This document shows, in pieces, positions 2,653 to 62,855 of a stretch of DNA of 64,000 nucleotides. The DNA is from Candidatus Stahliibacteriota bacterium (GTDB lineage: Bacteria > Hydrothermota > Tepidihabitantia > SM23-42). Both the position numbers and the translations under genes were made by a program. Under the pieces are notes generated by a model. It made no database searches and was not told where the DNA came from. It was given only the letters and a program-made list of their open reading frames with translations. Location of the stretch: positions 55 to 64,054 of the forward strand of contig JAUWCU010000003.1 of assembly GCA_030609135.1 (NCBI GenBank), read 5' to 3'. The stretch's first letter is position 1. Each line of letters starts with the position of its first letter.

Positions 2653-2737
2653 CATCTGTCTGCCTCAGGCTGAGGCGACTACAATTGATTGAATCATAAG
2701 TGATTGGAAGTCACGCTGGCGCTGTGATTGTTAAAAA

Positions 2738-2797: not shown

Positions 2798-2838
2798 AGG
2801 TGAGGGATAAAGATGTGTTCAAGTTTCTGTTATTAGTA

Positions 2839-8222: not shown

Positions 8223-8271
8223 TGTAGTTGCTCGATTCATCGAGCATTGCCTGATAAATCAGGGGACTACA
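8223..8271 (+). repeat. REPIN-like doublet: TGTAGTTGC-tcgattcatcga-GCATTGCC-tgataaatca-GGGGACTACA
   Basis: GTAG head and inverted CTAC tail enclose two hairpins. Confidence 0.75.
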
Positions 8272-21140: not shown

Positions 21141-21168
21141 ATATTATGAATAAATACGTGCAAGTCAA
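21141..21168 (-). promoter_or_regulatory. promoter of the phoB/phoR-like operon
   Basis: Minus strand reads TTCCCCTTGACTTG (the same 14-mer as at recA): TTGACT-N16-TAATAT. Confidence 0.45.
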
Positions 21169-21190
21169 GGGGAAGCGGATAATTAGTCTC

Positions 21191-21317
21191 GTAATTGTTC
21201 AATTTTCAGTGGAGAAGCGTAGTTGCGACATTTATGGCGTCTATTTATGTGGCATATCGAGACTTTCTGCACGATGAATCGTGCGACTACAATGTTCCAC
21301 CAAGTTTTGAACAATTA
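21191..21317 (+). mobile_element. 127-nt MITE-like element with terminal inverted repeats (copy 1)
   Basis: GTAATTGTTCAAtttt...gttttGAACAATTAC termini. The inside has GTAG-headed gtagttgcgacatttatggcg and inverted tgcacgatgaatcgtgcgactac. A second copy lies at 62661..62818. Confidence 0.75.
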
Positions 21318-21326
21318 CTTAGCCTC

Positions 21327-21354
21327 TTGACACCTTATTAACACTTGTTATAAT
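21327..21354 (+). promoter_or_regulatory. promoter of the lipoprotein gene; leaderless-type spacing
   Basis: TTGACA-N16-TATAAT, then 6 nt before ATG 21361. It starts 10 nt after the MITE-like element. Confidence 0.65.
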
Positions 21355-22826: not shown

Positions 22827-24278
22827 CTAATGAATTGTTTCTCGTATCAATTTTGTACTACGGCAGGATTTTCTTTTGATCGTAAATACTGCATGCATTT
22901 GTTTGGCTACAGCCCTTGCTTTTGATCGGTTGTCACAAATGATTTCTATTAAACATTCGCCTTTTTTTACATAATCACCGATTTTTTGGTTGACTTTAAA
23001 TCCACATGATGGGTCGATTTTGTCTTCCTTTTTAAGTCTACCCCCACCCAATTGTACGAGCAACATGCCGATATCAAAAGTATCAATATGATGTATATAC
23101 CCTGTTTGTTGTGCTTTGATTTTAATTCTATTTTTTGCTACTGGTAAACGTGAATAATCATCAATGATACGAACATCACCACCCTGATAATGAATAATCT
23201 CTTTAAATTTATTTAAGGCTTCACGGTTTGCTATCTTTTTCTCAAGGAGGTTTTTCCCGCCTTTAATTTTAGCGAGCTTAAGCATTGCCTTGCCAAGCTC
23301 GAACGTGACTTCCATCAAATCCTTTGGACCACTGCCCTTTAGCGCCTCGATCGTTTCAATAATCTCTAAAGAATTGCCTATATAGTTACCTAATGGATTA
23401 TTCATATCAGTTAGGATGGCGATGACTTTAACTTGGAATCCCCCGTTGCTTGCGGCGTGGGATGAGATATAATACTCCCTCTCCCTTGAGGGAGAGGGTA
23501 GGGGTGAGGGTGAAATTGAAAGTAAGATACCCTGCCCCAAGGGGCAGGGAGCTTCATTCTTTTTGCAACGAGAGTCTCGTTGCACTCCAAAGCGTTTGCC
23601 GATTTGAATCATGGTCCGCGCAAGCTTTTTTGCTTTTTTATAATCAGTCATGAATGCGCCACTGCCAAATTTCACATCGAGCACCAGACCATCGAGATTT
23701 TCAGCAAGTTTCTTAGACATTATGCTTGCGGCAATGAGAGGGATTGAATCAACCGTTGCTGTTACATCGCGCAAGGCATATATTTTTTTGTCAGCGGGCG
23801 CAATTTCTCCGGTTTGTCCAATCATGGCAACGCCAAGTCTTTTTAACTGGCGCTTGAATGCTTTGAGCGTTAGATTAGTACGAAACCCGGGGATTGATTC
23901 TAATTTGTCTAAAGTACCACCTGTATGACCCAGACCGCGACCCGAAATCATGGGCATACAGATACCACATGATGCCATCAAAGGTGCCAGAATAAGTGAT
24001 ACCTTATCACCGACCCCGCCCGTAGAATGCTTGTCGATCTTTGGCTTTTTAATTTCTGAAAGGTTGAGCATCTTTCCAGTGTGCATCATGGCTTGCATCA
24101 AATCAGTGGTTTCGTTAATATCCATACCCTGAAAATATACCGCCATTAAAAAGGCAGCCAGTTGATAGTCAGGGATATTGTGTTTTGTGTATTCAGAAAT
24201 CAGATACTTTATTTCGTGTTCATTTAATTTTTTACCATCACGTTTTTTACGAATAATATCAAGGACGCTAAATTCCAT
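22827..24278 (-). CDS. pdp: pyrimidine-nucleoside (thymidine) phosphorylase carrying a 50-codon in-frame insert
   Basis: KHSTGGVGDKVSL, SGRGLGHTGGTLDKLE, ALRDVTATVDSIPLIAASIMSKK. Start moved to ATG 24278 (MEFSVLDIIRKKRDGKKL..). Confidence 0.9.
   Translation of the reverse strand: MEFSVLDIIRKKRDGKKLNEHEIKYLISEYTKHNIPDYQLAAFLMAVYFQGMDINETTDLMQAMMHTGKMLNLSEIKKPKIDKHSTGGVGDKVSLILAPLMASCGICMPMISGRGLGHTGGTLDKLESIPGFRTNLTLKAFKRQLKRLGVAMIGQTGEIAPADKKIYALRDVTATVDSIPLIAASIMSKKLAENLDGLVLDVKFGSGAFMTDYKKAKKLARTMIQIGKRFGVQRDSRCKKNEAPCPLGQGILLSISPSPLPSPSREREYYISSHAASNGGFQVKVIAILTDMNNPLGNYIGNSLEIIETIEALKGSGPKDLMEVTFELGKAMLKLAKIKGGKNLLEKKIANREALNKFKEIIHYQGGDVRIIDDYSRLPVAKNRIKIKAQQTGYIHHIDTFDIGMLLVQLGGGRLKKEDKIDPSCGFKVNQKIGDYVKKGECLIEIICDNRSKARAVAKQMHAVFTIKRKSCRSTKLIRETIH
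23433..23582. repeat. 150-nt hairpin-repeat insertion inside the pdp reading frame
   Basis: Three hairpins: ccctctcccttgagggagaggg (23477..23498), ccctgccccaaggggcaggg (23530..23549) and tgcaacgagagtctcgttgca (23564..23584). Same module types as the intergenic repeats at 11010 and 25617. Confidence 0.8.
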
Positions 24279-24912
24279 TACACCCCATAGCTTCGCGCAA
24301 TCGCTTGCACGATGCGCATTTACCGCACATTTCTTTTTTGCCAAGATAGCACGAGTAAACATATTGGACAGGCGCCTTGTATTTTAGTCCGAGTTTGTAG
24401 ATTTGTTTCTTTGTATATTCAAGAACAAAGCTCCTCACCTTAACCTTGGTAAGTGTGCTGAACATTAGGGCGTGGTTTATTGCTGCCATGAATTGTGGTC
24501 TGTTGTCCGGGAATTCTTCGGCTTCTTCGCGGTTAAACCCTGTAATAATGAACTCGGCGCCTAAATATTCTGCATAACACGCCGCAATATTTATGAAAAG
24601 ACCATTTCTGTTTGGAATCCAAACGTTCTTTAAGTTGCTAAATTTCCTAATCCTGACATTTTTGGACTGAAGCATAAGGAGTTTCTTGAATTCTTTGAAA
24701 AAAGGTATTTTGATAACCTTGTGTTTGATTTGTAATGCCTTACATATCTTTCTGGATGCGGAAATTTCCATTTTTGCAGCCCGTTGGCCATAATCAAATG
24801 TTAGCGCAAATAGCGGTCTTGTTTTCTTCTTGGCTATTGTCGCGCTGACTAAGGAGTCAAGACCGCCGGATAGGAGGATGATGCTCTTCAATTGGCGAGA
24901 TTGCTTCGTCAT
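24268..24912 (-). CDS. queC: 7-cyano-7-deazaguanine synthase
   Basis: PP-loop LLSGGLDS; C-terminal Zn motif CGKCASC. Start moved to ATG 24912 (MTKQSRQLKSIILLSGGLDS). The upstream 63 codons of the track ORF are repeat DNA. Confidence 0.9.
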   Translation of the reverse strand: MTKQSRQLKSIILLSGGLDSLVSATIAKKKTRPLFALTFDYGQRAAKMEISASRKICKALQIKHKVIKIPFFKEFKKLLMLQSKNVRIRKFSNLKNVWIPNRNGLFINIAACYAEYLGAEFIITGFNREEAEEFPDNRPQFMAAINHALMFSTLTKVKVRSFVLEYTKKQIYKLGLKYKAPVQYVYSCYLGKKEMCGKCASCKRLREAMGCNGI

Positions 24913-29528: not shown

Positions 29529-29572
29529 TTGTAGTCCTGACAGGCATTTGCAGAGTAAACTCTGCCACTACA
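29529..29572 (+). repeat. REPIN-like doublet TGTAGTCC-tgacaggcatttgca-gagtaaactc-TGCCACTACA
   Basis: Shares the 3' half (gagyaaRctctgccactaca) with the 74-nt family at 34251, 36395 and 36989. Confidence 0.7.
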
Positions 29573-29689: not shown

Positions 29690-29811
29690 AGGGCGGAGAG
29701 AGTAGATGGAGTGCAACGGCTTGCCGTTGCATGCAGTAGCAAGCTACTGCACTCCGTAGCAAAATCAAGGGATAAGGGATAAAGATGTGTCCAAGGTTTC
29801 TTAATTAAAAG

Positions 29812-29846: not shown

Positions 29847-29922
29847 GGCGCCATCGTCTAGCTTGGTTTAGGACGTCGCCCTCTCAAGGCGAAGATCACG
29901 GGTTCAAATCCCGTTGGCGCTA
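29847..29922 (+). tRNA. tRNA-Glu (anticodon CUC)
   Basis: Hand-folded cloverleaf. Acceptor GGCGCCA/TGGCGCT (G1-U72); D arm GTCT/GGAC; anticodon stem TCGCC/GGCGA with loop CTCTCAA; T arm ACGGG-TTCAAAT-CCCGT. No encoded CCA; a T-run follows. Confidence 0.9.
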
Positions 29923-62598: not shown

Positions 62599-62660
62599 TG
62601 ATTCAATTGGTTCTTTGATAGAGCGGCAATGATCATAATGGTTGGGATGATATGTTACAT

Positions 62661-62818
62661 GTAACTGTTCAATTTTCGGTGGAAACTTGTAGTTGCGACA
62701 TTTATGGCGCATATTTGTTTTAAATTTCAAGACATTTTGCACGATGAATCGTGCGACTACACCCCGCCATTTTGTAAAAGAGCGGGGTACATTAGTCCAC
62801 CAAGTTTTGAACAGTTAC
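62661..62818 (+). mobile_element. MITE-like element copy 2 (158 nt) carrying a nested hairpin insertion
   Basis: GTAACTGTTCAAtttt...gttttGAACAGTTAC termini. Same internal gtagttgcgacatttatggcg / tgcacgatgaatcgtgcgactac as copy 1. Extra accccgccattttgtaaaagagcggggt at 62761..62788. Confidence 0.75.
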
Positions 62819-62827
62819 TGTTGTCTC

Positions 62828-62855
62828 TTGACATAGATTCCATATTCTGTATAAT
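62828..62855 (+). promoter_or_regulatory. abiEi-abiEii promoter
   Basis: TTGACA-N16-TATAAT, starting 10 nt after the MITE-like element. Confidence 0.6.

Follow-up and report, generated by a model that had tools for sequence, protein, structure and literature searches.

Miniature inverted-repeat elements of candidate division WOR-3 that probably integrate upstream of host promoters in one orientation

A DNA stretch of 64,000 nucleotides from a Candidatus Stahliibacteriota bacterium (contig JAUWCU010000003.1, positions 55 to 64,054; hereafter the window) contains two copies of a non-autonomous DNA transposon (a MITE, from miniature inverted-repeat transposable element), each lying directly upstream of a consensus promoter. 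Further copies from metagenomes, together with an insertion sequence that has the same ends, carry a sigma-70-type promoter pattern beside one of their two arms at preferred distances, and almost never beside the other. The reading that we favour, and regard as probable, is that the MITE is mobilised by this parent insertion sequence and that its integration is directed to promoters in a specific orientation. The adjacency itself is plain from the collected copies; we infer that it reflects the targets chosen by the transposase complex and not selection at a later stage.

The two window copies, their relatives and the parent insertion sequence

The two loci of the window are made up as follows.

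21183..21190 (no strand), left target-site duplication of copy 1, TTAGTCTC, matching the right one at 7 of 8 positions
21191..21318 (+), MITE copy 1, the canonical form, 128 nt
21191..21213 (+), copy 1, left terminal inverted repeat, GTAATTGTTCAATTTTCAGTGGA
21219..21290 (+), copy 1, core made of the GTAG...CTAC double hairpin, with the architecture of the free repetitive extragenic palindromic (REP)-like units at 8224 and 36817
21296..21318 (+), copy 1, right terminal inverted repeat, the promoter-side arm, TCCACCAAGTTTTGAACAATTAC
21319..21326 (no strand), right target-site duplication of copy 1, TTAGCCTC, abutting the -35 hexamer
21327..21354 (+), predicted host promoter TTGACA-N16-TATAAT, outside the duplication, 12/12 consensus positions
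62653..62660 (no strand), left target-site duplication of copy 2, decayed, TGTTACAT, 5/8 match
62661..62818 (+), MITE copy 2, 158 nt, of which 128 nt are the body and 30 nt a nested hairpin
62661..62683 (+), copy 2, left terminal inverted repeat
62689..62760 (+), copy 2, core made of the GTAG...CTAC double hairpin
62761..62790 (+), nested 30-nt GC-clamped hairpin of copy 2, CCCCGCC-ATTTTGTAAAAGA-GCGGGG, at the same position in the copies L174 and L171
62796..62818 (+), right terminal inverted repeat of copy 2
62819..62826 (no strand), right target-site duplication of copy 2, decayed, TGTTGTCT, 1 nt before the -35 box
62828..62855 (+), predicted host promoter TTGACA-N16-TATAAT, 12/12 consensus positions, serving an abiEi-like/abiEii pair (ATG 62877)

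The initial annotation had noticed terminal inverted repeats and a GTAG hairpin pair common to both loci, and this is confirmed; the copies have an identity of 109/128 over the shared positions. Both copies start with GTAAyTGTTCAA-TTTTCr-GTGGA and end with TCCACC-AAGTTT-TGAACArTTAC, and the 23-nt inverted repeats consist of 12 perfect base pairs and another 5-6 bp, with 6 unmatched nt between the two. The left-arm 17-mer has exact matches in the window at these two sites only, and the internal 23-mer TGCACGATGAATCGTGCGACTAC is common to both cores, with no chance match expected. Two details had to be corrected: the last base of copy 1 is 21318 and not 21317, and the gap to TTGACA, given as exactly 10 nt at both loci, is 8 nt for copy 1 and 9 nt for copy 2. 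The similarity between the loci does not extend into the flanks; it ends with the inverted repeat, past which only CTC and the two promoter hexamers agree, and the window pair is therefore not a segmental duplication. Each copy is predicted to fold as a single long hairpin (-43.5 and -63 kcal/mol; z = -4.9 and -8.1). An intrinsic terminator was considered and dropped, as the hairpin of the window copies is not followed by a T-run on either strand.

Further copies were sought in metagenomes with the 23-nt arm pattern, which gave 55 loci picked regardless of their flanks; since these were chosen by the arm alone, the flanks are an unbiased sample. A relaxed arm search gave 26 complete elements. 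When a genome collection was scanned with a looser pattern of 16 fixed bases, about 116 chance matches (L002-L117) were returned, among which only L024 and L097 are real copies, and the viral contigs scanned held none. The two window copies, and more than 20 metagenome copies as well, have GTAAyTGTTCAA-N6-GTGGA arms at either end, and the host lineage is candidate division WOR-3. Copy 1 has 97% identity with L136 and copy 2 has 99% identity over 128 nt with L166, both of them metagenome copies at unrelated loci. The elements measure 110-295 nt with a mode of 128 nt, and none has a gene inside; in some variants the arms are kept and the core is wholly unrelated. Short-read assemblies break inside the element. 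The additional hairpin first seen in copy 2 is real, and the accompanying idea that elements insert into elements agrees with the longer copies, which hold different small hairpin inserts at several different internal positions.

Among the complete copies with both flanks readable, the 8-bp duplication directly outside the arms is perfect in 12 of 21 and matches at 7 of 8 positions in 3 more. The 12 perfect duplications are mutually unrelated in sequence, and a comparison of the duplications and left flanks revealed no common motif. The -35 hexamer lies 0-7 nt beyond the right-hand duplication. These duplications, together with an autonomous insertion sequence that has the same ends, turn what had been called MITE-like into a MITE with all the features that define one.

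The parent became visible at locus L170, where a 1711-bp element with the ends of the MITE encodes a frameshifted transposase. A protein search then found intact transposase relatives of 347-375 aa, on whose contigs insertion sequences of 1651 bp are present. The ends GTAAyTGTTCAA...GTGG are common to the insertion sequences of L170, L175, L176 and L181/L182. In the 1651-bp insertion sequence of L182, the left arm holds TTTTCG and the right arm AAGTTG, which is the asymmetry of the MITE; its duplication AACATCCT is perfect, and the TTGACG-N16-TATAAT promoter of an MNT/HepT pair stands 15 nt from the right arm, in the orientation seen with the MITE. At L175 (517..1737), an IS110-family element interrupts a parent copy between orfA and the transposase gene, and this interrupted copy itself lies within another copy of the same insertion sequence.

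The transposase family is marked by an N-terminal CxxC...CxxC zinc ribbon and by invariant D, D and E residues, and it matches the models of ISH6, IS66, ISL3, IS6 and IS256 only far below their cut-offs. The NCBIfam model transpos_IS256 gave 20-48 bits (cut-off 150), Pfam Transposase_mut remained below or near its threshold, and the NCBIfam IS66 model gave 18-62 bits (cut-off 180). For Pfam DDE_Tnp_IS66, with a threshold of 23.1 bits, the distant relatives P0008 (29.2) and P0019 (39.5) lie above and P0001 and P0009 below. An AlphaFold2 (AF2) model with a mean predicted local distance difference test score (pLDDT) of 88 has ISCth4 as its best match in the PDB (6xgx_A; E = 4e-9, template modelling score (TM) 0.50, root-mean-square deviation (rmsd) 8-9 A), a match of predicted structure that indicates the superfamily and not membership of the IS256 family. 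We treat the transposases as an unclassified member of the IS256/IS66/ISL3 supergroup. The insertion sequence has no tnpA/tnpB accessory genes, only a small upstream OrfA that differs by subgroup, being a DUF6788 protein in one and an unrelated 102-aa protein in the other. OrfA was considered as a targeting protein and dropped, because subgroups with unrelated OrfAs have the same ends and the same behaviour.

Position and orientation with respect to host promoters

Promoter association was counted on the unique arms of the window and the metagenomes, with the pattern TTGAC[AT]-N15-18-TAnnnT. The pattern starts 5-16 nt outward of 27 of the 33 right arms and is near only 1 of the 28 left arms (Fisher p = 2.6e-10), and the orientation is therefore 27:1 (p = 2e-7); the background chance is 0.005 per arm. 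Thirteen right arms stand 15 nt from the -35 box, seven stand 9 nt and two stand 8 nt from it, and there are single cases at 5, 7, 11, 14 and 16 nt. These two peaks put the end of the 8-bp duplication 0-1 nt or 7 nt ahead of the -35 hexamer. No link was seen between the distance class, 9 or 15 nt, and the arm variant. The suggestion in the initial annotation that the element targets promoter-proximal sites is thus supported by both the arm counts and the sharp distance peaks, and the other copies do have the adjacent promoter whose absence was the danger to that idea. 

A promoter adjoins each of the 13 insertions with perfect duplications, namely 12 MITEs and the full-length insertion sequence of L182; judged by these intact duplications, recent insertions are already at predicted promoters. 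The additional right arms from WOR-3 or related genomes fit as well, L024 with a distance of 14 nt and L097 with 7 nt. For the 1711-bp insertion sequence, whose arms are symmetric, 6 of 13 unique arms match the promoter pattern with TTGACA 15-21 nt away, and two further arms have TTGACA at 15-16 nt with no matching -10 box; where the promoter-side arm could be assigned to one end of the 1711-bp element, both ends occur. In these small numbers, elements with unlike arms are oriented and the symmetric insertion sequence is not, and the orientation rule seems to follow the arm-specific 6-nt block. One MITE copy (L171, 34..214) has two left-type arms, with TTTTCG at both ends, an inverted core and a promoter on neither side. 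This single case fits the notion that the right-arm block may matter for promoter-proximal placement.

The genes downstream are ordinary ones (rpsP, rpmB, sppA, ftsE, folK, a leuC-like gene and others), and the left-side neighbours stand in tandem in some cases and are divergent in others. Start codons lie 5-25 nt past the -10 box and often only 5-7 nt, a spacing that suggests leaderless mRNAs at these promoters. At the sppA promoter of two species, the MITEs differ in core and in duplication, and in a third species sppA has no promoter of its own and no MITE is present there. Several targeted promoters show the motif (GAT)GCGTG 3 nt upstream of the -35 box, as in GATGCGTGgggTTGACA and GGCGTGGTTGACG. 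It is found in the flanks of right arms or insertion-sequence arms at L122, L146/L153, L150, L160 and L182, where one of the promoters drives the MNT/HepT toxin-antitoxin pair, and it may be an operator motif or a further target determinant.

At the two window loci, the consensus promoter is indeed followed by unrelated genes, as first described. Behind copy 1 stands the gene of a 470-aa protein with a lipoprotein-like N-terminus, the mRNA of which is probably leaderless, because its ATG (21361) is only 6 nt past the -10 box. Behind copy 2 are a weak match to AbiEi and then a clear AbiEii. On the other side of copy 1, 22 nt from its left arm, a weaker divergent promoter-like site of a PhoB-type response regulator was found.

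21141..21168 (-), promoter-like site TTGACT-N16-TAATAT

Perfect TTGACA-N15-19-TATAAT sites are frequent in the window, with 11 occurrences against 0.13 expected, and 10 of the 11 have a 16-nt spacer. The two window cases alone are accordingly weak, and the significance comes from the wider census. Examples of the 11 are listed by position.

2839, perfect promoter site
29812, perfect promoter site
29940, perfect promoter site
34474, perfect promoter site
37121, perfect promoter site
39383, perfect promoter site
53116 (-), perfect promoter site
53294, perfect promoter site

Several window genes begin 5-7 nt past the -10 box, and this spacing suggests that leaderless mRNAs are widespread in this WOR-3 lineage.

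Target choice and the other explanations

In the mechanism that we propose, the MITE would be mobilised in trans by the insertion sequence of 1.65-1.7 kb with the same 23-nt ends, which would provide a small OrfA and a zinc-ribbon DDE transposase of IS256/IS66/ISL3-like fold, and integration would yield the 8-bp target-site duplication. The target would be a position and not a sequence within the 8 bp, namely 8 bp separated by 0-1 or 7 nt from a sigma-70-type -35 hexamer downstream of them, and the promoter would be faced by the right arm, which in the parent is the end downstream of its transposase gene. This promoter would be the host's and older than the insertion, neither carried nor created by the element. 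The transposase complex would read the -35 hexamer and then integrate at a fixed offset in one orientation. There are two candidates for the recognition. A DNA-binding domain that also binds TTGAACA in the element ends could read TTGACA directly, which is plausible because the element's own ends hold this similar motif; alternatively, RNA polymerase or sigma bound at the promoter, or the DNA bend that they induce, could be recognised. The element would gain a safe landing site, where no gene is disrupted and no transcription enters from the host promoter. Whether a bacterial DDE transposase family uses the promoter in this way, either bound by sigma/RNA polymerase or read directly at the -35 hexamer, as a beacon for integration 9 or 15 bp upstream in a fixed orientation, is a tentative proposal that we place slightly short of an even chance.

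Several points weigh against integration directed to promoters. The empty-site allele was not recovered, as exact copies of the flanking proteins gave only short Logan contigs that break inside the element, and on the contigs that carry close relatives of the response regulator the upstream neighbour is another one, so that they offer no orthologous empty site; the pre-insertion state is a reconstruction and was not observed. The promoters are predicted as such from their consensus and the position of the genes only. Between four and six right arms have no recognisable promoter (L131, L140, L173 and L146-right), and the full 1711-bp insertion sequence of L170 has neither a duplication nor a promoter. 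The evidence from the parent element is thinner, with mixed orientation in the symmetric-arm subtype, and the two preferred distances, 6 bp apart, are left unexplained by targeting. Moreover, every copy comes from a metagenome assembly and is an insertion that was fixed or has survived, so that selection is possible, and other repeats of this genome likewise pile up upstream of promoters.

The last two points speak for an explanation in which insertion is roughly random and the pattern is made by selection, either because an insertion does no harm only if it lies immediately upstream of a promoter in this orientation, or because the right arm serves as an upstream promoter (UP) element or a regulator site and is kept where this is of use. 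The right arm ends in 19 AT-rich nucleotides (CCAAGTTTTGAACAATTAC), which take the place of the region where UP elements are located, and the presence of the element at the sppA and rpsP promoters in different species could mean retention. Purifying selection alone, however, predicts a broad intergenic spread, whereas the observed peaks at 9 and 15 nt are within about 1 nt. A face-dependent activator site would call for a helical repeat between the distance classes, and their 6-bp offset is not one. The 13 insertions whose duplications are perfect, the youngest ones, all stand at promoters already, and the sppA insertions are independent, because their duplications and cores differ. Since the distances are sharp nearly to the single base, the youngest insertions already fit, and the rule holds alike for MITE variants whose cores are unrelated and for the 1.65-kb parent, target choice is favoured, and we consider an origin by selection unlikely, although it is the main rival and a serious one.

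The remaining explanations are much weaker. The identical CTCTTGACA-N16-TATAAT after both window copies would be expected if the promoter were a part of the mobile unit, be it a Correia-like promoter-carrying MITE or a larger composite element, which the initial annotation had offered as one alternative. But the 8-bp duplications directly flank the inverted repeats and separate them from the -35 box, and the promoter therefore belongs to the target DNA; the linker varies from 5 to 16 nt, and linker, spacer and downstream sequence are unrelated between copies whose inverted repeats are nearly identical, and the downstream housekeeping genes need promoters of their own. We reject this alternative as very improbable. 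A structured RNA gene or cis-regulatory RNA instead of mobile DNA is just as improbable: the strong predicted fold would suit it, but the hairpin is the plain product of inverted repeats, variants keep the inverted repeats only and have the whole core swapped, target-site duplications are present, the element stands upstream of promoters on both sides that all point away from it, and Rfam has no match to it, with a tRNA elsewhere as its only match in the window. Coincidence or a segmental duplication, with two intergenic repeats beside two of many consensus promoters, could appeal to the 11 perfect promoters in 64 kb; as the similarity ends at the inverted repeats and the adjacency recurs in the independent right arms far above the background, we give it hardly any weight.

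Known systems, significance and other repeats of the window

The closest known structure belongs to the IS256 family, as the best structural match of the transposase, ISCth4, has a DDE RNase-H fold with a helical insertion. Target duplications in this family are 8-9 bp, compatible with the 8 bp found here. In contrast to IS256, the transposase is far below the sequence cut-off, carries an N-terminal zinc ribbon, is accompanied by a separate small OrfA and acts on other ends, and to our knowledge no promoter-directed target choice has been described for IS256. In the IS66 family, the ISBst12-like group with a single transposase has ends starting with GTAA, an 8-bp duplication and a length of about 1.6 kb, to which the GTAA termini, the 8-bp duplication and the length of ~1.65 kb here are similar. 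Some relatives (P0008 and P0019) also pass the Pfam DDE_Tnp_IS66 threshold, whereas, of the transposases closest to the MITE (P0001, P0004 and P0009), the two covered by the Pfam scan, P0001 and P0009, fall short of it; and, unlike canonical IS66, the insertion sequence is without the accessory genes tnpA/tnpB.

Small inverted-repeat elements just upstream of genes with sigma-70-type promoters are known from Correia elements (CREE) of Neisseria, MITEAba12 and others (PMC10969869). In such Correia-type MITEs the hexamers are inside the element, whereas here the promoter is outside the target duplication and is the host's own. With regard to the core, the MITE resembles REP sequences and REP doublets (REPINs) in its GTAG...CTAC double hairpin, the layout of the free units at 8224 and 36817. 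The mobility of REPINs is attributed to REP-associated tyrosine transposases (RAYTs), without inverted repeats or duplications, while mobility here would come from inverted repeats of the insertion-sequence type, and other MITE variants have unrelated cores.

In behaviour, though not by homology, two further systems are similar. Tn7 inserts at attTn7 through TnsD, at a fixed distance from the recognised site, in one orientation and at a harmless intergenic position, and the element described here shares the fixed distance, the single orientation and the harmless site. However, Tn7 has one site per genome and uses TnsC and TnsD, whereas hundreds of promoters are possible targets here and no targeting protein was identified. 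In the retroelements Ty3, Ty1 and Tf1, the transcription machinery guides integration to a short, defined distance upstream of the regions where transcription starts, which gives them a safe haven; a short fixed upstream distance is seen here too, and a safe-haven placement would be a further likeness. They differ in being eukaryotic retroelements with integrases tethered to Pol III/TFIIIB or Sap1, and homology is confined to the DDE fold. A literature search, with most subscription journals outside its reach, found no bacterial insertion sequence or MITE that integrates a fixed distance upstream of -35 boxes, and returned only promoter-carrying MITEs and unrelated target preferences. 

Known classes of bacterial target selection are sequence motifs, DNA structure, the replication clamp, res sites, attTn7 and guide RNAs, and promoter-directed insertion, if true, would be a new class. 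It would also give promoter-tethered integration, as in Ty3, Ty1 and Tf1, its first counterpart among prokaryotes, with a safe-haven strategy convergent with that of the yeast retrotransposons, and an uncultivated phylum would have a natural system of promoter tagging. For annotation, the right arms could flag predicted working promoters in candidate division WOR-3, for which we know of no mapped promoter; the consensus of those beside the right arms, TTGACA-N16-TATAAT, closely resembles that of E. coli, and apparently leaderless genes are frequent behind them. A compact transposase of ~375 aa that acts at a fixed offset upstream of promoters and leaves genes intact could serve promoter tagging or safe-site insertion. 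For the host, one and the same AT-rich, hairpin-forming sequence has taken the place of the DNA upstream of dozens of housekeeping promoters, and it may change or coordinate how active these are.

Other repeats in the window were also recorded. Free REP-like units run from GTAG through a first hairpin (loop GATTTATC) and a second one (loop GATGAATC) to CTAC, and their copies differ by compensatory changes in the stems. These units are clustered upstream of promoters, and the MITE core is one of them.

8224..8270 (-), free REP-like unit
36817..36874 (-), free REP-like unit
about 29530..29572, free REP-like unit
about 2660..2682, free REP-like unit
about 36990..37030, free REP-like unit

A hairpin element of ~44 nt, CCCGCAATTCTATTTATAGAATTACAATACGAAGCGGG, is present at five window sites (2565, 2609, 8384, 29646 and 36765(-)) and also nested in the MITE copies L147 and L174. 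It apparently lies inside GAT(G/A)AATC hairpin loops, with the motif repeated on both sides, as if it targeted such loops. A second conserved block, GATAAAGATGTGTyCArrTTTCT, lies upstream of three unrelated promoters and stops exactly 10 nt short of their TTGACA; the promoters serve an esterase-like gene, the tRNA at 29847 and, in a related WOR-3 genome, a PhoB-type regulator.

2806..2828, conserved block in the window
29778..29801, conserved block in the window
3930..3952 of L178, conserved block, also in L179 and L180

The sequence upstream of this block is not shared among the loci, and the block may be a regulator or UP-type site, or the end of another promoter-seeking element. Finally, the open reading frame of a 511-aa thymidine-phosphorylase-like protein at 22827..24362 (-) has a stretch of ~140 nt at about 23445..23585 that keeps the frame and contains several short GC-rich hairpins, for example CCCTCTCCCT/AGGGAGAGGG and TGCAACGAGA/TCTCGTTGCA, which looks like small palindromic repeats inserted in the coding sequence.

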